This document shows positions 46,329 through 61,662 of a stretch of 64,000 nt of DNA, piece after piece. Under the pieces are notes generated by a model, which saw nothing but the letters and a program-made list of their open reading frames with translations, did no database searches and was not told the DNA's origin. The first letter of the stretch is position 1, and every line of letters begins with the position of its first letter. The translations under genes and the position numbers were made by a program. The DNA comes from Escherichia phage vB_EcoM_DE16, in sequence record OP595145.1. One strand, written 5' to 3'.

Positions 46329-46356
46329 TTGATCTGAAATTATTTTCAGGTATCAT
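46329..46356 (+). promoter_or_regulatory. candidate sigma70-like promoter for the rightward early operon
   Basis: TTGATC, 16-nt spacer, TATCAT; about 25 nt upstream of the first plus-strand early gene. Confidence 0.35.
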
Positions 46357-46381: not shown

Positions 46382-46675
46382 ATGATGAACATTACTTTAG
46401 CAACTAAGAATATTTCTGAAACAATTAACGGTTTTGGTGTGATTGTAGCCTTGCACGGTAACAATGAGAAATGGTTGGCTTCTTTTGAAGAGGATCGTCA
46501 ACACAACATTATTTTAGATGCCCCTATAAAAGTTATGCATATCGTTGGTGAAAGCAAAGTGCTCACTTCCTCCCGTTCAAAAGAACAAATTACAAATGAA
46601 TTAGTAAAACTGCTTGACAATGTTCTTAACATGTTTGATAATGCACCCATCGATACAAAACGTGTCTTAATGTGA
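46382..46675 (+). CDS. hypothetical early protein
   Basis: 97 aa; AGAGAGG RBS. Confidence 0.4.
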   Translation: MMNITLATKNISETINGFGVIVALHGNNEKWLASFEEDRQHNIILDAPIKVMHIVGESKVLTSSRSKEQITNELVKLLDNVLNMFDNAPIDTKRVLM

Positions 46676-46687
46676 GAGGAGAACAAA

Positions 46688-46975
46688 ATGTACTATTCAC
46701 AAGACGAAGTAGCAAACATTAAACTGGCAGTGGGAGATCTTATTGTGTCACCTAACTACTATTGGGATAACACAGATTTGGTTGAAGTAGTAACCCATGT
46801 TGGAGTTGAAGGTATTGTGCTCTACACACTAGGTGGAGGTGTTGTTGGGGAAATGGAACGTTATACGACAACGAAGAAACTGGTAAGCTCTTATCACATG
46901 TTTTTACACCAAGGTTCGGAAGAGTATACAGCTTTCTTGTTGAAATTAGATGCAGATCGGGAGAAGGCACGATGA
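46688..46975 (+). CDS. hypothetical early protein
   Basis: 95 aa; GAGGAG RBS. Confidence 0.4.
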   Translation: MYYSQDEVANIKLAVGDLIVSPNYYWDNTDLVEVVTHVGVEGIVLYTLGGGVVGEMERYTTTKKLVSSYHMFLHQGSEEYTAFLLKLDADREKAR

Positions 46976-48470: not shown

Positions 48471-48827
48471 ATGAAAAAACTAATCTTAGCCACATTGCTG
48501 GCTACCGTAAGCTTCACCACTTACGCTCAAAAATTTGTAGCAGTTAAAACGGATATTGGTAAAGATGTTGTGATCACAGGCAACAAATTTTACTATACAC
48601 CTGGAAATGGTGTTCTAGAAGAGTGCAAAGATGTTGAGGCATATACAGGAAAAGAAGATAACACGGAACGTCCTTTTTATTCGATTATAGCTACTTGCAA
48701 AAATGAAATAGTAGCTATTAAACAATACAAAGATGCCCCTGGAGGAGAGTACTTATTAGTCAAGAATATTAAGAGTGAAAAAACTGCAAAGTTTACAGTA
48801 ATTATTTTAAAAGGAGAAACGTTCTAA
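48471..48827 (+). CDS. secreted protein with signal peptide
   Basis: Track ORF trimmed to ATG after GGAGGGAAG; MKKLILATLLATVSFTTYAQ. Confidence 0.4.
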   Translation: MKKLILATLLATVSFTTYAQKFVAVKTDIGKDVVITGNKFYYTPGNGVLEECKDVEAYTGKEDNTERPFYSIIATCKNEIVAIKQYKDAPGGEYLLVKNIKSEKTAKFTVIILKGETF

Positions 48828-49966
48828 TGAAATACACTATTTTTGGAGATGTAGCTGTTGTAAATAAGGAATATGGCGTTGAAGCTAATAAACTTCCTGC
48901 TGGAGTTTGGGTTGTCAACTGCGATCCGCACGGTAACTACTCTTTAGCGCGTGGCGAAAGTTTCTCTCTTCCGAACACTCTTTATGGGGAAACTAAAGAT
49001 CGCGCCGCACATGTTATTAAAACATTTGCTCGTCGTAGTAAAGAAGGTAAAAATACTGGGGTGTTACTGACAGGCACAAAAGGTAGTGGTAAGACGATGT
49101 TAGCTAAACTAATTAGCATGTCCCTAATGTCCACAGAAGGTTTAGGTATTCCAACCATTTTGGTTACACAGCCTTACACAGATGCTGGATTCTTAGAATT
49201 TATGAGTAAAATTACAGATCGTGCTGTTGTTTTATTTGACGAATTTGATAAAGTGTATGCTAAGAAAGAAGATCAGGAAGCACTGTTGACCTTGTTGGAT
49301 GGAACAGGAAGTGGGAATAAACTTTACATCCTCACTAAAAATAGTGGCTATATCTCGGAATATTTTGTAAACCGTCCTAGTCGTATTTATTACAGTTTCA
49401 ATTACGATAAACTGTCTAGTGAAACTATGTTAGATTACTTGGATAAGAACTTGGTAAATAAAAAGCACGTAGATAACTTCCAACGTTTATGGGATGTTAG
49501 CACAGAGCTGTCTTTCGATGTTATTCAAGGCATTGTAGAAGAATTGAATTTCTATCCAAAAATGACTTTTAAAGAATGTCTTGAAATGATGGGTATTTCT
49601 TTAGGCAACGATGCTAAATGGAATGTGGCTTCTATCGTAGCTAATGGCAAAACCCTGAAGGTGAATTGGATCAATAACTGGCACGACTTCACCCCTACTA
49701 AGTTTTTGTCGGGTTCTTGTTCCCTGAACATCTATCTGCAAAGCTTGAAAGATGATGAAGTGGAAGCAATGGAAACCAACAGTTATGTTATCCTGGATGA
49801 AGATGGCGATCCACATATTGATCTGTGTGCAACTGCTGATGGTCTAACTTGTGATCTGATTGAAGGTGGTAAGATTCTGGTGATGAGCACTACACCAGGA
49901 AACACTCTGCGAGTGGTGCTGGAGCCTGTAACACAACGTTCCACTACACTGGGTAGCGTGTTCTGA
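48827..49966 (+). CDS. AAA+/P-loop ATPase
   Basis: 379 aa; Walker A GTKGSGKT; Walker B VVLFDEFD. Confidence 0.55.
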   Translation: MKYTIFGDVAVVNKEYGVEANKLPAGVWVVNCDPHGNYSLARGESFSLPNTLYGETKDRAAHVIKTFARRSKEGKNTGVLLTGTKGSGKTMLAKLISMSLMSTEGLGIPTILVTQPYTDAGFLEFMSKITDRAVVLFDEFDKVYAKKEDQEALLTLLDGTGSGNKLYILTKNSGYISEYFVNRPSRIYYSFNYDKLSSETMLDYLDKNLVNKKHVDNFQRLWDVSTELSFDVIQGIVEELNFYPKMTFKECLEMMGISLGNDAKWNVASIVANGKTLKVNWINNWHDFTPTKFLSGSCSLNIYLQSLKDDEVEAMETNSYVILDEDGDPHIDLCATADGLTCDLIEGGKILVMSTTPGNTLRVVLEPVTQRSTTLGSVF

Positions 49967-49982: not shown

Positions 49983-50008
49983 AAACCCGCTTCGGCGGGT
50001 TTTGTTAT
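49983..50008 (+). terminator. rho-independent terminator
   Basis: AAACCCGC-TTCG-GCGGGTTT hairpin followed by TGTTAT. Confidence 0.7.
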
Positions 50009-50046
50009 ATTGACTTCAGACTTATAGGGAGAGAGGATAGATAAAG

Positions 50047-51249
50047 ATGGCGAAGACGTTAGAACAGTATATAGGAGAATGTAAACCAATAGCGGAAGCT
50101 AAAGGATATGAGATTATAGGGATTGTAGAGCCATTTAAAGGTGTGCACACGAAGATGATCAACTTCTGCCCTAATCATGGGGAGTGGAGAACATCCACAT
50201 TTGCCAATTTTAAACGTGGTAAGTCTGGTTGCCCTGGGTGCAAAAATGAGAAAGCAAGACAAGACAACAGTAAAAACCTAGATTATTACCTTTCGGAATG
50301 TAAGCCTATTGCTGAAGCTAAGGGAATCGAGATTTTAGGCATTAATGGAGAGTTTATAGGTGTACATACAAAGATGATCAACCTTTGTCCTGAGCACGGG
50401 GAATGGCGAACATTAACATTTCATAATCTTAAGGGTGGTAGTGGTTGTCCTAAATGCGGTAACAAAAGATCTAGGAATTCTAAAATACTCCCAGACGATC
50501 AGCACATACAAGACTTCATTAATACAGGAAAGTTTAAAGAGGGTACAATCTTCACTAAAACAGATAAAAAACGAGGCCGCGATTCTTTATGGTGTGTAGA
50601 GTGTCCTACCTGCTCTCACGATGAGTATGTGCAAGCTGGGGTGTGTGATGGTAAGTTTTATGTCGCAGGGAATGACCTTAAACAAGGGAAGATTCCTTGC
50701 CGTTGTGCAACTAACTGTCATTACACAGAAGCCCAGATTACCTATAGGGTAAAAAAGGCAGTAGAAAGGAAAGGGTATATCTGGGTAGGTTGGATCGGGA
50801 AACCGTCTGTAAGATTAGGTAAGTTTAAATATGGATGTAAGAAACATGGGGTACAAATAGGACGTGCCAGTGGTTTGTTAAATCATGGCACTGGTTGTCC
50901 GCAATGTGCTAACCAGACACAACAACAATGTTACATTAACCACATTCATGATGAACAAGGTATTCTCTGTGCTTTGAAATTTGGAATTGCCAATAATAGT
51001 GATCGCCGTATCAAAAAACAAAATAGTCGTAATGTGTTTACTATGAAACAGGTCCAAGTGTGGCACTTCCCTACTGTGAAGCAATGCAAAGATGCAGAGA
51101 AGCGTTGTAAGCGTGTCCTTCACACGGAAGCAGTGAGCAAATATGCTATGCCAGATGGCTACACAGAAACAGTAGAGTTATCTTGCATGGCCTCAATACA
51201 AAACATTTATAAACTTTATGGTGGAACATTACAGGAGGAAACATGTTAG
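50047..51249 (+). CDS. Cys/His-rich protein with tandem ~55-aa zinc-ribbon-like repeats
   Basis: 400 aa; two near-identical modules (ECKPIAEAKG...GVHTKMIN-x-CP-x-HGEWRT-x-TF...GCP-x-CxN) plus further CxxC/CP-x-C pairs. Confidence 0.5.
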   Translation: MAKTLEQYIGECKPIAEAKGYEIIGIVEPFKGVHTKMINFCPNHGEWRTSTFANFKRGKSGCPGCKNEKARQDNSKNLDYYLSECKPIAEAKGIEILGINGEFIGVHTKMINLCPEHGEWRTLTFHNLKGGSGCPKCGNKRSRNSKILPDDQHIQDFINTGKFKEGTIFTKTDKKRGRDSLWCVECPTCSHDEYVQAGVCDGKFYVAGNDLKQGKIPCRCATNCHYTEAQITYRVKKAVERKGYIWVGWIGKPSVRLGKFKYGCKKHGVQIGRASGLLNHGTGCPQCANQTQQQCYINHIHDEQGILCALKFGIANNSDRRIKKQNSRNVFTMKQVQVWHFPTVKQCKDAEKRCKRVLHTEAVSKYAMPDGYTETVELSCMASIQNIYKLYGGTLQEETC

Positions 51250-51621: not shown

Positions 51622-51801
51622 ATGGCACGTTTAGCAGATCATGAAATCTTTAAACCTATTCTGAACCACTATGATGAACTTAAAGCAGTGTTGGATTGTT
51701 ATAGAGAGGATGAAGAACGTTTGGAAGTCAATCTTAAGATAGTTCTGATGAAAGCTTTTCAAGACGGGCAAGCTAAAGTTTTAGAAGGCATGAAAAAATG
51801 A
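51622..51801 (+). CDS. hypothetical small protein
   Basis: Track ORF trimmed to ATG after AAAGGAG; 59 aa. Confidence 0.35.
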   Translation: MARLADHEIFKPILNHYDELKAVLDCYREDEERLEVNLKIVLMKAFQDGQAKVLEGMKK

Positions 51802-52340
51802 GAATAACTGATGAATATGTATTCTTCTTTTCACATAAAGATGTGTTTAGTAATTGGTATATTGCACCCTTTACAGAAACTGAACCAGGTTACAATGAGA
51901 CTTTCTGTTGTGTTGAGCAATATATGATGTGGCGTAAGGCTTTGCTGTTCAAGGATCATGCGATTGCAGCAGCTATCCTTGATCACTCGACTATACGTGA
52001 CAACGAGAGGAAACAAGCTTATTACAAACGTATGGGTAGGGCAGTGTCGGATTTTGATAACAACGTATGGGAAGAGAACCGTGAGCGTATTGTTATGCGA
52101 GGTTTATGCTTGAAATATGTACAGAATCCAGATTTGTATGCAGACTTACACCTTTACCAATACAAAACGTTTGTTGAAGCAAGCCCCTACGATAAGGTTT
52201 ACGGAATTGGAATGGGGATGTATGAACCAGGGGTGCTAAACCCTGCCACCTGGAAAGGGCAGAATCTTTTAGGCAAATATCATAATAAACTGATCGAAAT
52301 ACTTTTCCCAGACAAAATACCGCAAAGACGATATTTGTGA
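51798..52340 (+). CDS. NADAR (YbiA-like) domain protein
   Basis: 180 aa; FFFS...FSNWY, FCCVEQYMMWRKALLF, ASPYDKVYGIGMG follow the NADAR pattern. Confidence 0.55.
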   Translation: MRITDEYVFFFSHKDVFSNWYIAPFTETEPGYNETFCCVEQYMMWRKALLFKDHAIAAAILDHSTIRDNERKQAYYKRMGRAVSDFDNNVWEENRERIVMRGLCLKYVQNPDLYADLHLYQYKTFVEASPYDKVYGIGMGMYEPGVLNPATWKGQNLLGKYHNKLIEILFPDKIPQRRYL

Positions 52341-52395
52341 TATTTTAACTTTTTTCATTTTTAGAACAAAGGTGTCACTTTGTAGCACAGAAATA

Positions 52396-52430
52396 AGGCT
52401 CCTACAGCACCGTAGAGAGCCTATTATTTT
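52396..52430 (+). terminator. terminator-like hairpin after the NADAR gene
   Basis: AGGCTCCTAC-AGCACC-GTAGAGAGCCT imperfect stem followed by ATTATTTT. Confidence 0.45.
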
Positions 52431-52581
52431 GTCCTATACAAACCTTGTCTTTTTCAGTTTGCATCACTAGGATTCGATCTGAGTGGGTTCCTGAAGGTCT
52501 GCCAATAAGATTAAAGGTTATCTCAAATTCCCATTACCTATTATCTCAAAAATCCCTCAAATTATTTAAACTTTTTAAGAA

Positions 52582-52758
52582 TTTACAAAAGTGAAAGTTG
52601 AAAACCAAAATTTAAAGTTTAGGAAAATTATCTTAAAATGTTAGATACAAAACAAAACTCAAAAGTCAAGGAAAATTTTAAAAATTTTGCGCGCCCACAG
52701 TATTTAAAGTTTTTTTGCTTTTACAAAAATGAAAGTACAAAAGCAAAATTTAAAGTTT
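52582..52758. repeat. AT-rich direct repeats (two ~39-bp copies) with embedded TTTAAAGTTT near-palindromes
   Basis: TTTACAAAAGTGAAAGTTGAAAACCAAAATTTAAAGTTT (52582-52620) vs TTTACAAAAATGAAAGTACAAAAGCAAAATTTAAAGTTT (52720-52758). Confidence 0.6.
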
Positions 52759-52807
52759 ACAAAAATTTATGCAGGTGGGAATGAGAAGAGTTCTCATGTG
52801 GAAATGC

Positions 52808-52886
52808 AAATGATAATGATTCGCATTTAGGTTTATAAATGAGATTGATTCTTATTCAATAAGGTAAATGATAATCATTCTCATTT
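52808..52886. promoter_or_regulatory. two Fur-box-like palindromic operators
   Basis: AAATGATAATGATTCGCATTT (52808-52828) and AAATGATAATCATTCTCATTT (52866-52886) vs Fur consensus GATAATGATAATCATTATC; also palindrome AATGAGAAGAGTTCTCATG at ~52779-52797. Confidence 0.45.
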
Positions 52887-53117
52887 AGAGAATGACGCGC
52901 AGGGGCGGTGTTTGTCTCGCGCTCCCGTGTCCCCTCGCCATGTAATAAGAATAACAGATCCAGCCAGGAAAGCAAGCGATTATTTTATCTTTACATTTCT
53001 TTACAAATATATAGCGCCCAGCCTACCGGCGATCAACCTTCCAACCAGCGCCCTGGTATGTTAGCCCCGCCTTTACGCCGTGGGGTGGCGCTTCCTCTTC
53101 TGTATGTAAAACAGTAT

Positions 53118-53160
53118 AAGCCCGATCCCTGGGCTTGTCAAGATTATTTTTTGTTTTCTT
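53118..53160 (+). terminator. terminator-like hairpin at the end of the GC-rich island
   Basis: AAGCCC-GATCCCT-GGGCTT stem then TTTTTTGTTTTCTT 10 nt downstream. Confidence 0.3.
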
Positions 53161-53519
53161 GCCAGGATAGGACACCTAACCAAAAATGCATATCGCCCCG
53201 CGCCCCTGGTGGGATCTTGCTTTCCCCGCCGCCACTGCAAGCCCATAAATAACCATCAGCGAACGGATCAAAGTTTTCTATTTCTTCCACCTTATGATCG
53301 CCCAGGTTGAGAACGGTTTCAACCTTTAAGCCCGTTGCGCTTGCTACCTGGTGCACCGTGCCGCCTTGCCAGCCCAATGAGTGCATAAGGTGTAATGTAG
53401 TATTTGTCATGGTATCGCCCTTTCTTTGTTGTGCGCCCTGGTTGGCGCGGTAGAAAGATGATAGCCGTTTCCTTCATATACAGCAAGCAAAAAGAAAATA
53501 AAAAAGATTGAAAAAGTGG

Positions 53520-53548
53520 TTGACGTTCCTCACCTGGTAGCGTAGTAT
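53520..53548 (+). promoter_or_regulatory. sigma70-like promoter with long leader
   Basis: TTGACG, 17 nt, TAGTAT; ~135-nt leader before ATG 53683. Confidence 0.4.
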
Positions 53549-53682
53549 TCATCTTGTCGAGGGGGCGCGGCACAACGACAATAAACAACAGGAGGGCGCA
53601 ATGTAGGACGGGCAAAGGTGAGGATCTCCATAATCCACCGTCCACCAACAAAAAACATCATTCATCACCTGGAGTTAAAATC

Positions 53683-53880
53683 ATGGCAACATTGCACATA
53701 GTAGCGAAAGCAGGACAAATCAGCGTCGTGGTAAACGGTTTTACTGAGTTCAGTCATCCCCAGGATGATCATGAAACGGTTTTATCTTTTATTGATTCCT
53801 TGTTAGAAATGGGAGTCATTACAGAAGACCAGCACGCTACAAAATGCAAGCGCGTTAATCAAATTGCAGGGATAGAATAA
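53683..53880 (+). CDS. hypothetical early protein
   Basis: Track ORF trimmed to ATG after GGAG; 65 aa. Confidence 0.35.
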   Translation: MATLHIVAKAGQISVVVNGFTEFSHPQDDHETVLSFIDSLLEMGVITEDQHATKCKRVNQIAGIE

Positions 53881-53886
53881 AAAGTA

Positions 53887-53946
53887 TTGACAACAAACAA
53901 CAACCTGATAAGATGTATCACATAGGGCGGGAAGTGGTTTCCCGCT
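53887..53946 (+). promoter_or_regulatory. promoter plus 5'UTR stem-loop cassette
   Basis: TTGACA, 16 nt, TAAGAT; hairpin GGGCGGGAA-GTGG-TTTCCCGC; then AGAGAGATTATCATC-ATG. Confidence 0.5.
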
Positions 53947-53970
53947 CGTAACAGAAGAGAGATTATCATC

Positions 53971-54243
53971 ATGGCATCATATAGCGCAACAATGATCGTA
54001 GCTGGCACAACTGGTAAACCTATGAGCGGTGGCGGATCTTTCGCTAATATCAATATTGACGGGCGTTTATCCCTGGACGCAGCGATTGCCATTGCACGGG
54101 AAACATTTAAAAAAGAATGTAATTTCAATAAGCAAGATTATTTAGGTTTCGCTATTGAAAAAACCGCGCGCTTTGTTGATTATAAAAGCCCGAAAATGAT
54201 CGACACTACACTAAAAGCGCAAGATGTAGCGTTTTTGCTTTAA
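53971..54243 (+). CDS. hypothetical early protein
   Basis: 90 aa; cassette-supplied RBS and ATGGC start. Confidence 0.45.
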   Translation: MASYSATMIVAGTTGKPMSGGGSFANINIDGRLSLDAAIAIARETFKKECNFNKQDYLGFAIEKTARFVDYKSPKMIDTTLKAQDVAFLL

Positions 54244-54246
54244 GGC

Positions 54247-54302
54247 TTGACATTAACGAATAATTTGTTAATATGTTACATAAAGCGGGAATAGTTCCCG
54301 CT
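54247..54302 (+). promoter_or_regulatory. promoter plus 5'UTR stem-loop cassette
   Basis: TTGACA, 16 nt, TAATAT; hairpin AGCGGGAA-TAG-TTCCCGCT. Confidence 0.5.
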
Positions 54303-54319
54303 ATTTGTAAGGTGGTAGA

Positions 54320-54577
54320 ATGTTTTACATCAAATTAAAAGGTCACGTGATCGCGTTCAAAGATAACGCTTTTTACAGATTAGCAAAATATGCGTTAATA
54401 CATCCCCACTATGTTTATATAAGGGGGCGTGATGAAATAAATATCTTTGATCAAACAACATGCGAGAACATCGAGATCCGCAAGGTTGGCGTACGTGACT
54501 ATCGTACATCTTTCTACCCTTGCAAGGATTCAGCAAGTCTTTTTAAAGTATGCCAATTGTTGAAAAAAGGTGGTTAA
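54320..54577 (+). CDS. hypothetical early protein
   Basis: 85 aa; GGTGG RBS. Confidence 0.4.
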   Translation: MFYIKLKGHVIAFKDNAFYRLAKYALIHPHYVYIRGRDEINIFDQTTCENIEIRKVGVRDYRTSFYPCKDSASLFKVCQLLKKGG

Positions 54578-54578
54578 T

Positions 54579-55136
54579 ATGGGCCGCGAATATGTGATCC
54601 AGTCTTGGGTAAAACATGAAGCAGATGATCCGCGCATCATTCCCGATCATCTTATCGATGAATCCACGGGATATAGCGGTGAGCAAATAGGTAACAGATT
54701 AGCACGTAGTAACGGCAACGTAAAAGCGCGTTATGTGCGCCCTGGCTGGCTGGCAAATGGTAACGCTGATTTATCCAGTGCGGAAGATGCGAGCGACGGC
54801 GCGAAAGATAATCCTTTGTACAAAATTGATCCGGCTTTTCGTGTCCTGGATGAATACCCCAGCAAGATAGCGGCGCTCGATCAGGCCCTGGAAAGTAAGC
54901 GCATCACCTGGACCGCTTACAACATGGCAAAAAACGTACTTGATGGTAAATTGATTCAAGCTGAAAGAAAATTAGCCAAAATTGCAGCCATAGCCCAGGA
55001 GGAAGACGAGGAGACAACGGAAGAGGAAGAGTACGAAGAGATCCCGCCGTTGTTGTGTGTTGATGCTTTTCCTGATTATCAGCCGACAGAGGAAGAAAAA
55101 AGGATCGCACTAGAAAACTTTGAAAATAGTCTTTGA
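54579..55136 (+). CDS. hypothetical protein with acidic C-terminal region
   Basis: Track ORF trimmed to ATG after AAAGGTGG; 185 aa. Confidence 0.4.
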   Translation: MGREYVIQSWVKHEADDPRIIPDHLIDESTGYSGEQIGNRLARSNGNVKARYVRPGWLANGNADLSSAEDASDGAKDNPLYKIDPAFRVLDEYPSKIAALDQALESKRITWTAYNMAKNVLDGKLIQAERKLAKIAAIAQEEDEETTEEEEYEEIPPLLCVDAFPDYQPTEEEKRIALENFENSL

Positions 55137-55189
55137 CATATCGCCGCCACTGGCATAATATTTACCACGTAGGGCGGCAATGGTGCCGC
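55134..55189 (+). promoter_or_regulatory. promoter plus 5'UTR stem-loop cassette
   Basis: TTGACA, CATAAT/TAATAT; hairpin GGCGGCA-ATGG-TGCCGC. Confidence 0.5.
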
Positions 55190-55218
55190 TCATAGTGAAA
55201 TTATGCAAGAGGCTTACA

Positions 55219-55314
55219 ATGATTAATAAAGAAAATAGCTTGACGGTTGGAACGATTAACGCTATCATTCTAGCCGTTCCATTTTGGGTTGTAGTAGCGG
55301 CTATTATTTTCTAA
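55219..55314 (+). CDS. small membrane peptide (31 aa), not in supplied ORF track
   Basis: CAAGAGG RBS; MINKENSLTVGTINAIILAVPFWVVVAAIIF. Confidence 0.3.
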   Translation: MINKENSLTVGTINAIILAVPFWVVVAAIIF

Positions 55315-55322
55315 AAATATTC

Positions 55323-55383
55323 TTGACAACGTTTTTTAATCTGATAAGATGTATCACATAGGGCGGCGGAATACTTCCCCGCC
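55323..55383 (+). promoter_or_regulatory. promoter plus 5'UTR stem-loop cassette
   Basis: TTGACA, 16 nt, TAAGAT; hairpin GGGCGGCGGAA-TAC-TTCCCCGCC. Confidence 0.5.
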
Positions 55384-55406
55384 AAAACAAAAAAAAGGGT
55401 AACACA

Positions 55407-55769
55407 ATGAGCAAGCAAATCAATACTATCATGTTTAATCTGGTATCTTTCCGCGATGATATGAAAAATTTACCACGTGAAACGGTTGATATCCATGTTT
55501 CAGCTTATCGCGCCCTTATTGATATGTTACCGCTAAAACGTGATCAACATGCCGCTAATATGATGCTTAATGCTATGCTTAAAAAGATGATTCAAACGGA
55601 TCTTACTCTGGCGTATGAGTATCAAGGGCGCTTATATGCGACTTACAACAAAGCGGTACCTGGTCTGGGAAGTACCGAAGAGTTGCACGGCTTAAACCTG
55701 GATCAAAACACTTGGGATAGTATGCGCCGCGTTATGGTATGGGCCGAAAGCGGTAAAATTTACGAATAA
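55407..55769 (+). CDS. hypothetical early protein
   Basis: 120 aa. Confidence 0.45.
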   Translation: MSKQINTIMFNLVSFRDDMKNLPRETVDIHVSAYRALIDMLPLKRDQHAANMMLNAMLKKMIQTDLTLAYEYQGRLYATYNKAVPGLGSTEELHGLNLDQNTWDSMRRVMVWAESGKIYE

Positions 55770-55775
55770 AAACGG

Positions 55776-55832
55776 TTGACACTGTTTAAACTTCTGGTAT
55801 AGTTTATCACGTAGGGCGGCAATGGTGCCGCC
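55776..55832 (+). promoter_or_regulatory. promoter plus 5'UTR stem-loop cassette
   Basis: TTGACA, 16 nt, TATAGT; hairpin GGCGGC-AATGG-TGCCGCC. Confidence 0.5.
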
Positions 55833-55852
55833 AACAATAAAAGGTTAACATC

Positions 55853-56032
55853 ATGGCTATCATTGCAAAAACTGAGATTATAGGTTTAGATTCGATCCTC
55901 CTGGCTTATGAGGAAACTTTAAAAATGTATGTAGTGACCTATGGTGATTATGTGCGTGAATACGAATACATTGATCTTGCTTTCGAATGTTACATTCGCC
56001 AGGTCAATAAAGCCTATAACGATTATCGTTAA
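55853..56032 (+). CDS. hypothetical small protein (59 aa), not in supplied ORF track
   Basis: AAAGG RBS; ATGGCT start as in other cassette genes. Confidence 0.35.
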   Translation: MAIIAKTEIIGLDSILLAYEETLKMYVVTYGDYVREYEYIDLAFECYIRQVNKAYNDYR

Positions 56033-56051
56033 AAGTTTTAGTCTTATACTA

Positions 56052-56103
56052 TTGACAATGAGTGATAGTATAAGCATAATAACTTTTATCGGGAATACTT
56101 CCC
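56052..56103 (+). promoter_or_regulatory. promoter plus short 5'UTR stem-loop cassette
   Basis: TTGACA, 17 nt, CATAAT; hairpin GGGAA-TAC-TTCCC. Confidence 0.45.
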
Positions 56104-56129
56104 ACTAACCAAAAAGAGAGATTATCATC

Positions 56130-56495
56130 ATGGCTATTAATATCAATGTTTCCGCTTATGCTACCCTGGCTAACACGGCTAAAATTGAATTATCCAGCAT
56201 TGAAGCGGTGCACATTAGCGCCCGTCGCTGGTTTCAACAGTCCTACGGTAACACATATTTTTCTTTAATGGTTGACGTTGAGATCGGCGGTAAACTGATC
56301 GAGGTGGTTAACGTTCCGTTTCAATATGGCTATGGTGATCATTTTGATACCGTCGCCCTGGAAGAATTTAGCAAGGTTATTAATATGGAAGGTAAAGAGT
56401 TTTCACGCGGCGCGTATCTTTCCCGTTTTTGCCGTGACAATGGGATCACTGTATACAGTCATGCGAGCGATGTTAAACGTAAAAAAGATTTATAA
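56130..56495 (+). CDS. hypothetical early protein
   Basis: 121 aa; AGAGAGATTATCATC-ATGGCT. Confidence 0.45.
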   Translation: MAININVSAYATLANTAKIELSSIEAVHISARRWFQQSYGNTYFSLMVDVEIGGKLIEVVNVPFQYGYGDHFDTVALEEFSKVINMEGKEFSRGAYLSRFCRDNGITVYSHASDVKRKKDL

Positions 56496-56501
56496 AAAGC
56501 A

Positions 56502-56560
56502 TTGACAGCACGAATAAAAAGAGTAAACTGTATTACATAGAGAGCGGGAATACTTCCCGC
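56502..56560 (+). promoter_or_regulatory. promoter plus 5'UTR stem-loop cassette
   Basis: TTGACA, 16 nt, TAAACT; hairpin GCGGGAA-TAC-TTCCCGC. Confidence 0.5.
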
Positions 56561-56584
56561 CTCACTGAAAAAGAGATTAATATC

Positions 56585-56824
56585 ATGGCTAAATCAAAAA
56601 TGTTCTTAGGTCACAAAAATAAAACTCATTGGAATGTAAGCCTTTGGATTAATAATGACGAATCATTATATCGGTTGGCGAAAGAATTTATCGCCGCTAA
56701 TACTAATCGTAATGATGCTGCCCGTGATATGATGTTATTCCTGGAACAAACTGGACAAGATAAAACTCCAGACGGTTTCAAGTATAGCACTACAGCGATC
56801 CGCGCCGCGATGGTTGGAATGTAA
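56585..56824 (+). CDS. hypothetical early protein
   Basis: 79 aa. Confidence 0.45.
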   Translation: MAKSKMFLGHKNKTHWNVSLWINNDESLYRLAKEFIAANTNRNDAARDMMLFLEQTGQDKTPDGFKYSTTAIRAAMVGM

Positions 56825-56833
56825 TAAAAACAG

Positions 56834-56893
56834 TTGACAACGTTTAAAATTAGTGTAAGATGTATCACATAGGGCGGGAAGTGGTTTCCCGCC
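56834..56893 (+). promoter_or_regulatory. promoter plus 5'UTR stem-loop cassette
   Basis: TTGACA, 16 nt, TAAGAT; hairpin GGGCGGGAA-GTGG-TTTCCCGCC (same as the 53887 copy). Confidence 0.5.
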
Positions 56894-56914
56894 AAAACAG
56901 AGAGATTAAAGATT

Positions 56915-57142
56915 ATGGCTATCAATATTGTTCGCGTATCCGGCACCGTTGGCACTTCCCAGGTTATTGCAGTTGTAACAAACAAAAAGATTAATGATGT
57001 ATGTGAGATCTTGAATAAGTGGGCTGTTGCTAATTTTGGGGAATATGCAAGCGTCGAGTACATCGAATCCTACCAGGTGCCAACCATCAGCCTAACCGAT
57101 CTCAACGTTGATCGCCTGTTATGCCTGGATGAATTAATCTGA
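56915..57142 (+). CDS. hypothetical early protein
   Basis: 75 aa. Confidence 0.45.
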   Translation: MAINIVRVSGTVGTSQVIAVVTNKKINDVCEILNKWAVANFGEYASVEYIESYQVPTISLTDLNVDRLLCLDELI

Positions 57143-57151
57143 AAAAGATTG

Positions 57152-57207
57152 TTGACACGGGAAAGAAAAAGAGTAAACTGTATTACGTAGGGCGGCAATA
57201 GTGCCGC
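57152..57207 (+). promoter_or_regulatory. promoter plus 5'UTR stem-loop cassette
   Basis: TTGACA, 16 nt, TAAACT; hairpin GGCGGCA-ATAG-TGCCGC. Confidence 0.5.
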
Positions 57208-57232
57208 TCACAACAGAAGAGAGATTATCACG

Positions 57233-57448
57233 ATGGCTAATATCCGTACACTGTTAAAAAATGCAAGTCAAGTTTTATTTTCAGATGACGAGTATTTCAA
57301 TAAAGACATTACAGGCGTAAAAAATCTTAAAGATGTAAAGGATGTGATAGGTATTCGCGGATCTTTACGTAAAGGTGACTACTACGGCAATAAAGTACAA
57401 TATAAATTAAATCAGTCTTATGATTTTACTTTGACAATTATTTCATAA
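57233..57448 (+). CDS. hypothetical early protein
   Basis: 71 aa. Confidence 0.45.
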   Translation: MANIRTLLKNASQVLFSDDEYFNKDITGVKNLKDVKDVIGIRGSLRKGDYYGNKVQYKLNQSYDFTLTIIS

Positions 57449-57454
57449 AACCGC

Positions 57455-57516
57455 TTGCAATCTTAATAAAATAAAGTAAACTGTATTACATCAAGGCGGC
57501 GGAATGGTCCACCGCC
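57455..57516 (+). promoter_or_regulatory. promoter plus 5'UTR stem-loop cassette
   Basis: TTGCAA, 16 nt, TAAACT; hairpin GGCGGCGGA-ATGG-TCCACCGCC. Confidence 0.45.
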
Positions 57517-57540
57517 TAACAAAGAGAAGAGGAAAACACC

Positions 57541-57708
57541 ATGATCACTTTCGCTACCCGTGAAGCCGCTCGCAACGTTGCCCGTAAAGTTAACGCCGCC
57601 AACCTGGGCGCTACGTTTAAAGCACCTGTAAAAGATGAATCAGGGAAATGGATCTTCCCTGGTCTGCGTCATGCTGACAAGTTAGGTACTTTAAGCCTTA
57701 AAAAATAA
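57541..57708 (+). CDS. hypothetical small basic protein (55 aa), not in supplied ORF track
   Basis: AGAGGAAAA RBS; MITFATREAARNVARKVNAANLG... Confidence 0.35.
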   Translation: MITFATREAARNVARKVNAANLGATFKAPVKDESGKWIFPGLRHADKLGTLSLKK

Positions 57709-57711
57709 TCG

Positions 57712-57749
57712 TTGACTTTTCGTTATAGCGCCTTATAATGGGCGCTATA
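57712..57749 (+). promoter_or_regulatory. sigma70-like promoter with -10 box inside a perfect palindrome
   Basis: TTGACT, 16 nt, TATAAT; inverted repeat TATAGCGCC / GGCGCTATA brackets the -10. Confidence 0.45.
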
Positions 57750-57782
57750 GAGAAGAGAAACCACTACTAACAAGGAAACATC

Positions 57783-58004
57783 ATGATCACTTTCGCTATT
57801 GTCGCCGTTGTCGCTGGTCAGGTTTACGTAAACGATACATTCACCACAGAAGACAAGGCCGCAGGAGACATAACCGCCGTTTACAATAAGTGCAAGGCAG
57901 TAGAAAGGATGTTAGCGCCTTGTATGTTAATGAGTGAACGCCAGGACGGGATAACAGTGTTTACTAACATTGAAACAGGGTACCAAATGGTAGTAACAAA
58001 ATAA
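57783..58004 (+). CDS. hypothetical early protein
   Basis: 73 aa; hydrophobic N-terminus MITFAIVAVVAG. Confidence 0.4.
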   Translation: MITFAIVAVVAGQVYVNDTFTTEDKAAGDITAVYNKCKAVERMLAPCMLMSERQDGITVFTNIETGYQMVVTK

Positions 58005-58007
58005 AGC

Positions 58008-58065
58008 TTGACACGGATTTAATTTTCAGTAAACTGTTACACGTAGGGCGGGAATAGTTCCCGCT
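58008..58065 (+). promoter_or_regulatory. promoter plus 5'UTR stem-loop cassette
   Basis: TTGACA, 16 nt, TAAACT; hairpin GGGCGGGAA-TAG-TTCCCGC. Confidence 0.5.
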
Positions 58066-58082
58066 AAAAAGAGAGAAAGACC

Positions 58083-58436
58083 ATGAAAGCACAAAATGCA
58101 ATTAAAGAGTACATCCTTGCCGCTATCGATTTTAATGATTACGGTATTACAACCGAAAAAGAGAAGATCGCGGAATTGATGCGCCGTTTTAATTCAGAGT
58201 ACTGGTACCCTGATAACCAATCACGTTTTAATTATAGTATTGTTAAAGCACTTGCATCATGGTTACAAGGTTTGCCATCAGATATCAATATCGCTTTCGA
58301 ATATTGGGAAATTGATCGCTTGTTAACATCCTGGGGATACATTAAAGAGAATAGCAACGATGATAAAATCCAACGAGAAAGGGAAAATTATTGGCTTTAT
58401 ATTGCAGGCGTGATCCTTGCTTGCTCTTATGAATGA
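58083..58436 (+). CDS. hypothetical early protein
   Basis: 117 aa. Confidence 0.45.
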   Translation: MKAQNAIKEYILAAIDFNDYGITTEKEKIAELMRRFNSEYWYPDNQSRFNYSIVKALASWLQGLPSDINIAFEYWEIDRLLTSWGYIKENSNDDKIQRERENYWLYIAGVILACSYE

Positions 58437-58442
58437 TAAACC

Positions 58443-58496
58443 TTGACAATTTTACAAAACAGTTTAAATTAACAATATAGCGGCAATGGTGCCGCT
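58443..58496 (+). promoter_or_regulatory. promoter plus 5'UTR stem-loop cassette
   Basis: TTGACA, 16 nt, TAAATT; hairpin AGCGGCA-ATGG-TGCCGCT. Confidence 0.5.
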
Positions 58497-58515
58497 CATA
58501 TGAAGAGGAAACAAA

Positions 58516-58662
58516 ATGAATACATCTAATCGCGCAGAAAAAATTCAATCTTCCAAGATCCGCAAGGCCTGGAACGAGGAAGTGATCCGCAAAGGCGACA
58601 AGCGCAATAAAACAAAGCGCGGGAAGAGTGACAAATATAATTGGATGGATTTAGAGGATTAA
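58516..58662 (+). CDS. hypothetical small basic protein (48 aa), not in supplied ORF track
   Basis: GAAGAGGAAA RBS; followed by a strong terminator. Confidence 0.35.
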   Translation: MNTSNRAEKIQSSKIRKAWNEEVIRKGDKRNKTKRGKSDKYNWMDLED

Positions 58663-58668
58663 CATAAC

Positions 58669-58696
58669 AAGGGCGCACCAAGCGCCCTTTCTTTTT
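58669..58696 (+). terminator. rho-independent terminator
   Basis: GGGCGC-ACCAA-GCGCCC hairpin followed by TTTCTTTTTAT. Confidence 0.7.
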
Positions 58697-58717
58697 ATAT
58701 GTAGAGGATAAACAAAG

Positions 58718-58903
58718 ATGACTTTAAACGAGCTTAAAACAGCCTACAACGCAACGTTAAAAATAGCCGTGCGTTACCGTGATGCGTACGGTTTTATCGC
58801 GCAGGGCGTGATCCTGGGCTTTTCTGACGATGGTTTGATCTATGTTGATGCACATCATAACAAGGTAAAACCTGAAAACGTCATTAGCATAAAATATCTT
58901 TAA
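58718..58903 (+). CDS. hypothetical early protein
   Basis: 61 aa; GAGGA RBS. Confidence 0.4.
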   Translation: MTLNELKTAYNATLKIAVRYRDAYGFIAQGVILGFSDDGLIYVDAHHNKVKPENVISIKYL

Positions 58904-58909
58904 AAGTGG

Positions 58910-58969
58910 TTGACACCATAACCGGACCTGTTAAACTGTATTACATCAGGCGGGGAATAGTTCCCCACC
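58910..58969 (+). promoter_or_regulatory. promoter plus 5'UTR stem-loop cassette
   Basis: TTGACA, 16 nt, TAAACT; hairpin GGCGGGGAA-TAG-TTCCCCACC. Confidence 0.5.
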
Positions 58970-58988
58970 ATACAAAAAGGTAAATATT

Positions 58989-59195
58989 ATGATCACAACA
59001 AAACAAGAAAAAATTATTACAGACATTGCCGCAGTAGCCGCTATTGCTATTATTGGTACCTACTATGACACCGCGCGTCCTTCCTCCTTGCATGAGGTCG
59101 CCGCCGTTGCATCAGTTGGCGTACTGTTTTACGTTGGTAAACGCTATTTATCACCAATGATTAACAAGCTGACACCGTGGAAAAATAAAGGTTGA
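58989..59195 (+). CDS. small membrane protein
   Basis: 68 aa; two hydrophobic segments. Confidence 0.4.
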   Translation: MITTKQEKIITDIAAVAAIAIIGTYYDTARPSSLHEVAAVASVGVLFYVGKRYLSPMINKLTPWKNKG

Positions 59196-59250
59196 TCCTG
59201 TTTTATATTGTGTTATAGTTATCGTGTAGGGCGGCAATGGTGCCGCGCCC
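59192..59250 (+). promoter_or_regulatory. promoter plus 5'UTR stem-loop cassette
   Basis: TTGATC, 16 nt, TATAGT; hairpin GGCGGCA-ATGG-TGCCGC then GCCCTTTT. Confidence 0.45.
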
Positions 59251-59266
59251 TTTTGAGGATGCAATC

Positions 59267-59551
59267 ATGAGTAAAGCTAACACCGTGTTAATGTTTTCCC
59301 TAGTTAATGATGCCGCTCACTTGTCCAACATGACGCAGGAGGGTAACACATTAACGGCAACATTCACCAATAAGCTTGACCGAGTGATCATCATCTCACT
59401 GAAAACAGTTAGTAAAGGCTTTTACTCGTTAGCTTATCATTGGATCACCGATACCGATGAGACAAGCCAGGACTATAGCGCCCCTTTCCCTGAATCAATG
59501 GCACGGGAGATCATCGCCGCCGTTGTAAATGATGGTTTGTTTACTGCATAA
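59267..59551 (+). CDS. hypothetical early protein
   Basis: Track ORF trimmed to ATG after GAGGA; 94 aa. Confidence 0.4.
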   Translation: MSKANTVLMFSLVNDAAHLSNMTQEGNTLTATFTNKLDRVIIISLKTVSKGFYSLAYHWITDTDETSQDYSAPFPESMAREIIAAVVNDGLFTA

Positions 59552-59566
59552 AAATTTAGAAAAGGC

Positions 59567-59623
59567 TTGCAATAATTTTGAGATAGTGTATATTTAATTC
59601 ATAGGGCGGCGGGAATAGTTTCC
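59567..59623 (+). promoter_or_regulatory. promoter plus degenerate 5'UTR stem-loop cassette
   Basis: TTGCAA, 16 nt, TATATT; decayed hairpin GGGCGGCGGGAATAGTTTCC. Confidence 0.4.
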
Positions 59624-59646
59624 AAAGCAAACGAGAGGATTACACG

Positions 59647-59766
59647 ATGAGCAAGTACACAGTAGAATACACGGTAGAAAATCCGGCAGTATCCGAAGGT
59701 AAAAAGATGACATTTGCCATCAGTATAATCGCTTTCGTTGTCACTATCTTATCAATCATCTTATAA
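59647..59766 (+). CDS. small membrane peptide (39 aa), not in supplied ORF track
   Basis: GAGAGGA RBS; C-terminal TM segment; coordinates approximate. Confidence 0.3.
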   Translation: MSKYTVEYTVENPAVSEGKKMTFAISIIAFVVTILSIIL

Positions 59767-59776
59767 GGTGCACACC

Positions 59777-59938
59777 ATGAAAACAACAGACATTATCAAA
59801 GAGATCGCCCTTGCCGCTGGCGTTGAAGTCGAGGAAGTGATCGCGCTCAATCTTACAGAAAACGATCTGCGCAACTATGAAGCGGAAAGCGTGAAAGCAA
59901 GCGGCGCGGTCCTGGTATATGATCCGGCTAACAAGTAA
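59777..59938 (+). CDS. hypothetical small protein
   Basis: Track ORF trimmed to ATG after AGGTG; 53 aa. Confidence 0.35.
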   Translation: MKTTDIIKEIALAAGVEVEEVIALNLTENDLRNYEAESVKASGAVLVYDPANK

Positions 59939-59947
59939 GGGGATAAC

Positions 59948-60058
59948 ATGAATCCGAAAGATATGCAAGCATGGAAAGGGTACGACGATCTAAGCGCCTT
60001 GCGCAATAAGTCAAGCCGTAACCTTAGACGGTTGGAAGCAAAGAAAAAGAAAAAATAG
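59948..60058 (+). CDS. hypothetical small basic peptide (36 aa), not in supplied ORF track
   Basis: AAGGGG RBS; Lys-rich C-terminus. Confidence 0.3.
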   Translation: MNPKDMQAWKGYDDLSALRNKSSRNLRRLEAKKKKK

Positions 60059-60059
60059 T

Positions 60060-60115
60060 TTGACAAGTCCGCCTAGTCTGATAATATATATCTTGTAGGG
60101 CGGCAATGGTGCCGC
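60060..60115 (+). promoter_or_regulatory. promoter plus 5'UTR stem-loop cassette
   Basis: TTGACA, 17 nt, TAATAT; hairpin GGGCGGCA-ATGG-TGCCGC. Confidence 0.5.
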
Positions 60116-60136
60116 TCACAAGAAGAGAGAAAAATC

Positions 60137-60421
60137 ATGAAAATCACAAAAAGCCTAACTAATTATGCAGCACGTCGCGGATTATGTTTAACCGTTGAAA
60201 ACTTAGGGAAAGAAGACTTTTTGTGTTTTTGGGAGCTTGAAAATGATTGCGAGTGGATGTTTTCTTATTCTATCTGCGAAGATCAAAACGGTTGTTTGTT
60301 AACCTGGCGCGGTAATATCTATTTACCGGAAGAAATTAAAGAAGAGTTACCAGGTACGATCATGACAGAGAGACAGCTTAAGGAAATGATTAATTTTGTA
60401 GGGCAAAACATTAAAAAATAA
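60137..60421 (+). CDS. hypothetical early protein
   Basis: 94 aa. Confidence 0.45.
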   Translation: MKITKSLTNYAARRGLCLTVENLGKEDFLCFWELENDCEWMFSYSICEDQNGCLLTWRGNIYLPEEIKEELPGTIMTERQLKEMINFVGQNIKK

Positions 60422-60422
60422 T

Positions 60423-60483
60423 TTGACAGCACGCAAACAACGTAGTAAAGTTTACCACATAGGGCGGCGGAATGGTCCACCGC
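60423..60483 (+). promoter_or_regulatory. promoter plus 5'UTR stem-loop cassette
   Basis: TTGACA, 17 nt, TAAAGT; hairpin GGCGGCGG-AATGG-TCCACCGC. Confidence 0.5.
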
Positions 60484-60506
60484 TCACAACAGAAGAGAAA
60501 CAAATC

Positions 60507-60677
60507 ATGATCCCGACTATGTTTTATGTATCGCGCAAAGGTCACAATATTTTTTGGTCTGAAGATTTAAATGAAGCTATGACGTTTGCCCGTGATCGTG
60601 TTGCTATCGGTGGCGTTAACATCACCGTAACCGATGAAAACGGCATTGAATACTATAACGGCGACAATGAAGAGTAA
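60507..60677 (+). CDS. hypothetical small protein
   Basis: Track ORF trimmed to ATG downstream of the cassette; 56 aa. Confidence 0.4.
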   Translation: MIPTMFYVSRKGHNIFWSEDLNEAMTFARDRVAIGGVNITVTDENGIEYYNGDNEE

Positions 60678-60684
60678 TCAACAA

Positions 60685-60702
60685 GGCGGGATTAATCCCG
60701 CC
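60685..60702 (+). other. intergenic palindromic hairpin without promoter boxes
   Basis: GGCGGGAT-TA-ATCCCGCC perfect palindrome. Confidence 0.4.
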
Positions 60703-60721
60703 TGTATTAAAGGGTAATATA

Positions 60722-60859
60722 ATGAAAACTTTCAACGCAACAGCCTCGACAATTGGTTATATTATTACAGTGCAAGCCGTTGACCTGGTAGCGGCAGCAA
60801 ACAAGATTAAAAAGATGATCCCAACAGGCAGCGAATTTTCCGTTTGGGAAGTAAAATAA
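60722..60859 (+). CDS. hypothetical small protein (45 aa), not in supplied ORF track
   Basis: AAAGGG RBS; MKTFNATASTIGYIITVQAVDL... Confidence 0.3.
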   Translation: MKTFNATASTIGYIITVQAVDLVAAANKIKKMIPTGSEFSVWEVK

Positions 60860-60862
60860 AGC

Positions 60863-60923
60863 TTGACAATAATTTGTTATCTAGTAAAGTGTATTACGTA
60901 GGGCGGGGCAATGGTGCAACGCC
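60863..60923 (+). promoter_or_regulatory. promoter plus degenerate 5'UTR stem-loop cassette
   Basis: TTGACA, 15 nt, TAAAGT; hairpin GGGCGGGGCAATGGTGCAACGCC. Confidence 0.4.
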
Positions 60924-60942
60924 TACTAATGAGGGTAGAATC

Positions 60943-61047
60943 ATGTTAGAGAAAATTTTCACGGTTGCAGTGGTTGGCCTGGCGTTATCGGTTGGAGTAG
61001 TTGCAACTATGGCTAATATGATCCTATCTTCCCACGGTATCGGTTAA
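60943..61047 (+). CDS. small membrane peptide
   Basis: Track ORF trimmed to ATG after GAGGG; 34 aa hydrophobic. Confidence 0.3.
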   Translation: MLEKIFTVAVVGLALSVGVVATMANMILSSHGIG

Positions 61048-61048
61048 G

Positions 61049-61273
61049 GTGAAACAAATGATCACGAATAAGACAGGTAAAACGGAATTTTTACGCAGCT
61101 TGCAAGTTGGTAAACCTGAGATTTGGCATTGTACTAAATCCGCGCATAATGAAATGAAAGATTTTACCGCTACTTTACAACGTGTTAAAATATCTATCAC
61201 ACAGAAAAAAGCCTTGTTAGTAGTAGAAAACGAGATCCCGCAAACTATTATTATTGTCGAGCGTACAGCATGA
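61049..61273 (+). CDS. hypothetical early protein
   Basis: 74 aa; AAGGTG RBS. Confidence 0.4.
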   Translation: MKQMITNKTGKTEFLRSLQVGKPEIWHCTKSAHNEMKDFTATLQRVKISITQKKALLVVENEIPQTIIIVERTA

Positions 61274-61656
61274 AAACAGAAATCATTATTGAAATCATCA
61301 ACGGCTATAAAGAAGCCTTTATTTTTGCTGAATCAGCAAGGGATCATGAAGGTAATTTTATTGATAACTTAGACGATTATGATTTTTCTCCTAGCGCAGA
61401 TCAACGGATCGCCCAGGATGTAACAGCCTTTATTAATGCTAATCTTGCCGCTATCTCTGAGGCAATGAGCGACGGCGCAACAGCCAACCAGATCGGGAAT
61501 GATTTACATTTTACCCGTAACGGTCACGGCGTAGGCTTTTGGGATCGCCCTGAAATATACACCACTAACACAGCCAACCGCCTAACCAATGCAGCTAAGT
61601 TTATGCCGAACGTGTCGGCTTACATTGGTGAAGATAATTTGATTTATATTGAATAA
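61270..61656 (+). CDS. hypothetical early protein
   Basis: 128 aa; ATGA coupling. Confidence 0.45.
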   Translation: MKTEIIIEIINGYKEAFIFAESARDHEGNFIDNLDDYDFSPSADQRIAQDVTAFINANLAAISEAMSDGATANQIGNDLHFTRNGHGVGFWDRPEIYTTNTANRLTNAAKFMPNVSAYIGEDNLIYIE

Positions 61657-61662
61657 AAAGTA

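Follow-up and report, generated by a model that had tools for sequence, protein, structure and literature searches.

The gene at 48827..49966 in the sequence of Escherichia phage vB_EcoM_DE16 almost certainly encodes an active AAA-type ATPase. The window analysed here is a stretch of 64,000 nucleotides from sequence record OP595145.1. It is close to certain that the protein belongs to the classic AAA clade, which comprises Cdc48/p97, NSF, Rix7/NVL, FtsH, proteasomal Rpt/PAN/Mpa and Bcs1. With less assurance, we consider it somewhat probable that the protein is a stand-alone ring unfoldase or remodeller, which would use a threading mechanism on a protein substrate; the ring, the threading and the nature of the substrate are what we infer. 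Both public annotation and PHROGs already list the gene as an ATPase, and to this extent the finding is an ordinary one. Unfoldases of the classic AAA clade are not often found in bacteria. Here a classic AAA protein with intact motifs and a single AAA module, accompanied by two accessory domains without a match (in Pfam for the N-terminal one, in the PDB for the C-terminal one), is kept by phages of four host groups. The identity of its substrate would reveal what large phages must unfold or dismantle during infection, and would annotate hundreds of phage genomes together.

The coding sequence, which comprises 379 codons and a stop on the plus strand, is supported by the open reading frame list, Pfam, PHROG and homologue clusters. 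A Shine-Dalgarno sequence, AGGAG, is present at 48812..48816 on the same strand, with the ATG 10 nt downstream, and the TAA of the preceding gene overlaps the ATG of the ATPase gene in the sequence TAATG. This spacing and this overlap make the start codon at 48827 credible. The 735 homologous protein clusters, the full-length match to PHROG 2376 and the Pfam AAA match above threshold are sequence evidence that 48827..49966 is a real gene and not a chance open reading frame. The 379-aa frame described in an earlier note on this DNA, with Walker A GTKGSGKT and Walker B VVLFDEFD, is present in full in the translation. Within the 64-kb window there is no paralog of the ATPase, as searched by tblastn with the protein. 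Phapecoctavirus genomes are 96–98% identical over the 6.1 kb surrounding the gene, and their records label it "ATPase", "putative ATPase" or hypothetical. Phapecoctavirus, the source of the window, belongs to the Stephanstirmvirinae, E. coli myoviruses of about 150 kb.

Counted from the divergent intergenic region, the ATPase gene is the tenth annotated gene. Gene 11 (50047-51249) encodes an endonuclease-like protein of 400 aa (CapR x3, DUF723 and a weak MUG113 match), which is bigger than the ATPase at 379 aa. The claim that the ATPase alone is a sizeable enzyme within the first twelve genes therefore does not hold. Gene 14 encodes a NADAR enzyme.

To which group of P-loop proteins does the ATPase belong? 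PF00004 (AAA) is the only Pfam family to score above its curated threshold in this protein (29.9 bits against a gathering threshold of 21.2), with aa 79-170 aligned to profile positions 1-107 of 131. PHROG 2376, named "ATPase", gives a full-length match (E=2.1e-111; aa 1-372 against profile positions 1-358 of 363). When the single sequence is used for searching, the relatives of known structure are Rix7, AFG2 and p97. A profile made from 30 sequences matches p97 D2, Cdc48, NVL, Rix7, AFG2, NSF and PEX1, the best E being 2e-7, and the profile alignment covers Walker A, Walker B, LLxxLDG (LLT-LDG), the sensor-1 Asn and RPxR. The LLxLLDG signature of classic AAA proteins is also found in the ATPase and is invariant. 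The earlier assignment of the protein to the AAA+/P-loop families stands, since its Walker motifs do align with AAA families, and a more specific assignment, to the classic AAA clade, is justified.

Several other assignments were considered and rejected. The STAND NTPase models nSTAND3, nSTAND5 and NACHT score 23.5, 21.7 and 18.9 bits, respectively, against Pfam thresholds of 34, 27.2 and 26.7. The RuvB and sigma-54 Pfam models are below their own thresholds, and NCBIfam returns only sub-threshold generic P-loop matches. No Rfam match reaches the gathering score anywhere in the 64-kb window.

Might the protein be a replication-associated AAA+ ATPase, such as a helicase loader, a clamp loader or an initiator-like protein, that acts on DNA-bound complexes? 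PHROGs of the clamp-loader and DnaC-like kind match weakly (E 1e-4 to 3e-3), as does Hda (19 bits), and the homologue in Enterococcus phage Porthos is labelled "putative clamp loader". However, the 19 bits for Hda compare with a cut-off of 194.8 bits, the dnaX, RFC and DnaC-like models are also far under their cut-offs, and the PHROG clamp-loader matches (E 1e-4) are limited to the P-loop region. The best matches of the ATPase are to protein remodellers. Its arginine motif is NRPxR, with two arginines, found together with a pore-loop aromatic residue, and is not the SRC of clamp loaders. In addition, replication genes are not adjacent to the ATPase gene, either in the window or in distant homologues. 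These findings make a role in replication quite improbable.

Conservation of the motifs was assessed in 29 lineages (60% identity clusters), each represented by a single sequence, drawn from 84 loci. K89, D138, E139, N172, R183 and R186 are invariant in all 29. The Walker A motif GTKGSGKT (aa 83-90; 49073..49096, plus strand, as are all features given below) contains K89, which is followed by T or S at position 90 in 29/29 lineages. The Walker B motif VVLFDEFD (aa 134-141; 49226..49249) contains D138 and E139. The sensor-1 residue Asn172, within LTKN, is encoded at 49340..49342. The sequence NRPSR (aa 182-186; 49370..49384), which contains R183 and R186, closes the second region of homology and is aligned to RPGR in p97, Rix7 and AFG2. 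In most of the lineages the RPSR of the window protein is the canonical RPGR. The pore-loop-1 region is TQPYTDAG (aa 114-121; 49166..49189). Position 117 in this region is Y, W or F in 27 of the 29 lineages, mostly in the form Ar-x-G. In the window protein the corresponding sequence is Y-T-D-A-G, in which the Gly is shifted from its place in the canonical Ar-hydrophobic-Gly.

The AlphaFold (AF2) model of the protein (pLDDT 83.9) has an AAA core plus a helical lid. At the N-terminus, model and alignment indicate a small beta domain of five strands (aa 1-55; 48827..48991), which is conserved family-wide at G7, G17, P24, G36, L40, P49, Y53 and G54 and has no Pfam match even at E<=1. This is followed by the AAA alpha/beta nucleotide-binding core (aa 56-195; 48992..49411), identified by Pfam, the model, and fold and profile searches, and by the alpha-helical lid subdomain (aa 196-255; 49412..49591), which has the conserved motif SFDVIQxxVEELNxYP. 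The C-terminal beta-rich domain (aa 256-368; 49592..49930) is variable in the family and confidently modelled, and a fold search found no structural relative of it in the PDB. In the AlphaFold model itself, the five N-terminal strands fall within aa 1-45 and the C-terminal beta-rich domain spans aa 264-368. Conservation in the family is seen in residues 1-250, and the C-terminal third is variable. The top structural matches are Bcs1, Trip13, NSF, NVL, Rix7, Rpt and FtsH, with Mpa also high. An HMM and structure search, which the earlier note had proposed, thus gives PF00004 above threshold and, in fold searches of the AAA core, AAA ATPases only.

The protein ends, according to the model and the alignment, in a flexible tail (aa 369-379, pLDDT <50; 49931..49963) with the final residues GSVF, and a terminal aromatic or hydrophobic residue is recurrent among the lineages. 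The docking tails of HslU and of the proteasomal ATPases end in an aromatic or hydrophobic residue. The phage ATPase could then be an unfoldase cap, the ring docking by its flexible aromatic C-terminal tail on a host peptidase (HslV or ClpP-like) and feeding it substrates. The disordered tail often has the aromatic or hydrophobic ending expected of such a cap, and the highest-ranking structural matches include FtsH, Rpt and Mpa. Yet the tail does not fit HbYX, and its length beyond the aromatic residue varies. The protein has no Pfam match to a peptidase domain, HEXXH is absent from its 379-aa sequence, and in the clustering of the 84 loci no peptidase gene is linked to the ATPase. We consider a peptidase cap very unlikely. 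Some BASEL phage records carry the label "FtsH-like protease" for this family; this label was rejected, there being no M41 peptidase match and no HEXXH.

Identity between the phage ATPase and p97/Cdc48 D2, NVL/Rix7, AFG2/Drg1 or NSF is only about 15-20%. Whereas p97-type proteins have the tandem modules D1-D2, the phage ATPase has a single AAA module. It also differs from the classic remodellers in its N-domain, which is a small and unrelated beta domain, and in the extra C-terminal beta domain that lacks a PDB relative. Bcs1, the mitochondrial translocase of the folded Rieske protein, has a small score margin over the other AAA matches, and its alignment extends over the AAA module only, covering about 255 columns both with the full-length protein and with the AAA domain by itself as target. 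Assignment to the Bcs1 family was rejected because neither BCS1_N (Pfam, E<=1) nor a transmembrane segment was detected in the phage ATPase. The Trip13/Pch2-like ATPase of CBASS (PDB 6p8v) is 15% identical, a resemblance that is that of the general AAA fold. Unlike CBASS Trip13, the phage ATPase has no HORMA/CD-NTase context, and its N-domain is unrelated.

How would such a protein work? Classic AAA proteins act on proteins. The invariant catalytic set, the pore-loop aromatic residue and the matches to protein remodellers together argue for a ring-forming unfoldase or disassembly motor with a protein substrate, and the trans-acting arginines make sense only in an oligomer. The protomers would form a ring, probably hexameric, in which Arg183 and Arg186 would complete the ATP site of the neighbouring protomer. 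Hydrolysis of ATP, supported by Lys89, Asp138/Glu139 and Asn172, would move the pore loop that carries Tyr117. The pore loop would in turn tug at a polypeptide, such that a protein is unfolded or a complex is pried apart. The conserved N-terminal beta domain may form a collar at the face where the polypeptide enters the ring. The C-terminal beta domain, which varies between lineages, and the flexible aromatic tail may provide partner or substrate specificity, or docking.

Homologues of the ATPase are present in 394 phage records (tblastn), of which 62 have copies at least 99% identical to it. The ATPase is 99.5% identical to its counterparts in dozens of Phapecoctavirus records, and other members of the family share 28-65% identity with it. 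The carriers include the Stephanstirmvirinae, with two paralogs in Justusliebigvirus; enterobacterial jumbo phages of roughly 360 kb (GAP32, Serratia BF and fHe-Yen9); Aeromonas and Proteus phages; Herelleviridae infecting Bacillus, Enterococcus and Lactobacillus; and Lactococcus 949-like phages, Staphylococcus 6ec-like phages, one Microbacterium phage and crAss-like phages. The hosts are thus Proteobacteria, Firmicutes, Actinobacteria and Bacteroidota, and the carriers are large virulent phages. Genes annotated as "ATPase" in PHROG 2376 and GenBank belong to the same family, for example Ro121c4YLVW gp108, GAP32_367, Lactococcus 949 ORF82 and the Enterococcus ECP3 ATPase. A literature search found no functional study of the PHROG 2376 ATPase family; the subject of one candidate paper was a MoxR ATPase, which is unrelated.

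Does a partner gene accompany the ATPase? When 6,222 ORFs of the 84 loci were clustered all against all, no conserved partner gene emerged across the lineages, and the largest co-occurring clusters are antisense shadow ORFs inside the ATPase gene itself. Neighbours encoding NadV-like NAPRTase, NadR-like AAA_28, Macro, RNase H, SPFH or R2K ATP-grasp proteins were each rejected as partners, being present in no more than 5 of the 29 lineages, and the neighbour genes in the window are confined to the Stephanstirmvirinae. Because no partner gene travels with it, the ATPase would appear to work as a stand-alone unit. The breadth of the family over unrelated hosts argues for a general role. Large virulent phages that infect widely different hosts have retained the gene, and for this reason a strain-specific restriction system is a less likely target than a phage protein, or than a host protein or complex that is universally conserved.

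Homologues are often embedded in phage tRNA arrays, which raises the question of a role linked to tRNA or translation. There is a tRNA within 1 kb of the ATPase gene in 25 of the 84 loci (9/29 lineages) and within 10 kb in 42/84, and all of the 319 tRNAs in these loci are on the ATPase strand. In ECP3, 949 and GAP32, which represent unrelated phage families, the homologue lies in or adjoins a tRNA cluster. However, there is no tRNA in the 64-kb window, nor in the 36 kb downstream of the ATPase gene. When same-strand ORFs of 100 aa or more are ranked by distance from a tRNA, the ATPase comes first in only 4 of the 15 tRNA-bearing lineages, so that the link with tRNA is regional. Proximity to tRNA genes is commoner than we would expect of a random gene, yet this is a pattern at the level of the family, which we have downgraded and do not take as evidence of function. 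We consider a role linked to tRNA or translation very unlikely. In other parts of their genomes, the Stephanstirmvirinae do carry more than 10 tRNAs (PMC12695924).

The earlier note had put forward host takeover or anti-restriction as candidate functions of this ATPase. In such a role the AAA motor would dismantle or unfold a host immunity protein, which might be a restriction complex or, by analogy with CBASS Trip13, a HORMA/CD-NTase complex. The gene is located within a long string of small accessory genes, among them that of the NADAR enzyme, and the variable C-terminal domain could follow host-specific targets. However, PADLOC gives weak and generic matches, headed by mad8 (E 4e-5, 21 bits, partial), the rest being short P-loop matches. 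The Trip13 score is indistinguishable from those of other AAA matches. Presence of the family in phages of unrelated hosts, together with its conserved N-domain, is unlike the narrow distribution and fast evolution of anti-restriction genes. Nothing specific to a takeover or anti-restriction role was thus found, PADLOC and NCBIfam being generic and the distribution being unlike that of a typical anti-restriction gene, and we regard this function as unlikely. More speculative, and less probable again, is a stand-alone viral unfoldase that dismantles a conserved host machine or immune complex, either as a Trip13-like switch that turns defence off or with its aromatic tail docked on a host peptidase, which would then be directed at proteins of the host. 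In that case, its repeated occurrence within tRNA arrays might be the sign of a mobile "translation and takeover" module that unrelated phage families share.

Nor do the promoter data give support to an anti-defence role through early expression. The ATPase gene is part of a co-directional string that begins near 46.3 kb, at a divergent intergenic region. The best sigma-70-like candidate promoter at the head of this string, TTGATC-16-TATCAT (46329..46356), is weak, with 9/12 matches, and is predicted from its sequence alone. Promoter-like sites in the ATPase operon region number 27, against 22.3 +/- 5.3 expected from shuffles, and are not above chance. Between 53.9 and 64 kb, a conserved cassette composed of TTGACA-16-TAAGAT/TAAACT/TAATAT and a GGGCGGCAATGGTGCCGC hairpin stands before almost all of the small genes, and there are 59 promoter-like sites against 32 +/- 6.5 expected. 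The ATPase gene string does not have the promoter cassette typical of that region. A search of the literature found no transcriptome for the Stephanstirmvirinae. The description of the ATPase as early-expressed was an assumption and not an observation, with modest promoters (9/12) at the operon head and the near-consensus downstream cassettes missing; early expression is possible.

In the reading that we favour, a stand-alone ring unfoldase or remodeller, the ATPase would be the last gene of a transcription unit that is closed by an intrinsic terminator. No promoter for gene 11 was seen when the 80-nt spacer beyond the terminator was read directly. TTGACT at 50010 was rejected as part of a promoter because there is no room for a -10 element before the ribosome-binding site. 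The terminator itself is an intrinsic-terminator-like hairpin with an 8-bp stem, a UUCG loop and a T-rich tail (49983..50012), for which the evidence is the motif, its folding and its conservation in relatives. The hairpin, AAACCCGC-TTCG-GCGGGTTT, occupies 49983-50002, starting 17 nt past the stop codon of the ATPase gene, and is followed by TGTTATATT. Its predicted folding energy is -18.2 kcal/mol (z = -5.3), and none of 200 shuffled sequences is equally stable. A GC-rich tetraloop hairpin followed by a T-run is found at the same position after the stop codon in relatives whose proteins are 80%, 65% and 48% identical, and also after the paralog. The strong terminator that the earlier note had placed after the ATPase gene is borne out by the hairpin and T-tract and by the retention of their position and shape in diverged relatives. 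The stem sequences differ among these relatives, which indicates that the structure of the terminator is conserved and its sequence is not.

The string of small plus-strand genes that includes the ATPase opens with two genes (46382-46975, plus strand) encoding a DUF7325 protein (E 5e-24) and then a "Phage tudor" domain protein (E 1.5e-24). Directly 5' of the ATPase is a 118-aa gene (48471-48827, plus strand), which is translationally coupled to it through a TAATG overlap. The 118-aa protein has no match in a Pfam search, and its gene is present in close relatives only. Judged by its sequence, the N-terminus, MKKLILATLLATVSFTTYAQ, looks like a signal peptide. At the other end of the ATPase is a disordered tail (aa 369-379; 49931-49963, plus strand) that ends in ...GSVF. 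In many of the lineage representatives the C-terminus has the form [FY]-x-[FYW]-x-A-F or resembles it in being aromatic or hydrophobic, and the tail may be a docking peptide.

Homologs of the ATPase are found within or adjoining phage tRNA arrays, the largest of which holds 29 tRNAs, on the same strand every time. The homolog loci associated with arrays are L002 (ECP3), L003 (phage 949), L004 and L010 (GAP32), L024, L030, L035, L058, and L069. A tRNA is present within 1 kb of the homolog in 9 of the 29 lineages, and no such association is seen in Phapecoctavirus. The link between the ATPase and tRNAs is regional rather than gene-specific. Phapecoctavirus genomes contain one copy of the ATPase. 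Justusliebigvirus genomes contain two diverged paralogs approximately 16 kb apart, each with its own terminator hairpin 3' of the gene; the window protein shares about 65% identity with one and about 43% with the other. The pair was seen at L007 and L016, both on contig IMGVR_UViG_2974717474_000001, and in records with two matching places.

Beyond the terminator that follows the ATPase is a 400-aa endonuclease-like gene (50047-51249, plus strand), labelled endonuclease or homing endonuclease in database records. Its product contains three CapR-homology Zn-ribbon modules, a DUF723 domain, and a weak match to MUG113/T5orf172. Within the gene is a tandem duplication of 219 nt, with copies at 50134 and 50353 that are 77% identical. 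No promoter for this gene alone was seen in the spacer that separates its ribosome-binding site from the terminator.

Farther along, a gene (51798-52340, plus strand) encodes a 180-aa protein with a clear NADAR domain (PF08719, E 1.8e-35). Its counterpart in OP562383 is labelled "GTP cyclohydrolase II", a probable mis-annotation. NADAR enzymes reverse DarT-type guanine ADP-ribosylation, and for this reason the NADAR gene is a stronger candidate for an anti-defence role than is the ATPase gene.

The 1.2 kb that follow (52340-53550) are poor in coding sequence, with one short gene on the minus strand (53144-53410). Two AT-rich direct repeats of 72 nt, at 52558 and 52696, are 82% identical, and 3' of these is a GC-richer segment with several hairpins. 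Rfam and tRNA searches of this stretch returned no match.

From 53870 to 64000, an intergenic cassette is repeated on the plus strand ahead of almost every small gene, with copies starting, for example, at 53872, 55308, 55761, 56819, 57137, 58000, 58895, 60045, 60848, 61648, 61946, and 63255. The order is an A-rich stretch, a near-consensus σ70 promoter (TTGACA-16-TAAGAT/TAAACT/TAATAT), a hairpin, a ribosome-binding site, and the ATG. There are 59 promoter-like sites in this region versus 32 +/- 6.5 in shuffled sequences, and it looks like the true strong-promoter region, perhaps an early one. The hairpin, GTAGGGCGG(C/G)AATGGTGCCGC, is conserved and is sited approximately at the transcript start; this 5' hairpin may be regulatory.

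Three of the matching records, OP562383.1, MG065650.1, and MG065645.1, carry the names "Acinetobacter phage ABPW7" and "Campylobacter phage B15/A145". Their DNA is 96-98% identical to that of E. coli phages of the genera Phapecoctavirus and Justusliebigvirus, and on sequence grounds the Acinetobacter and Campylobacter host labels are probably wrong.
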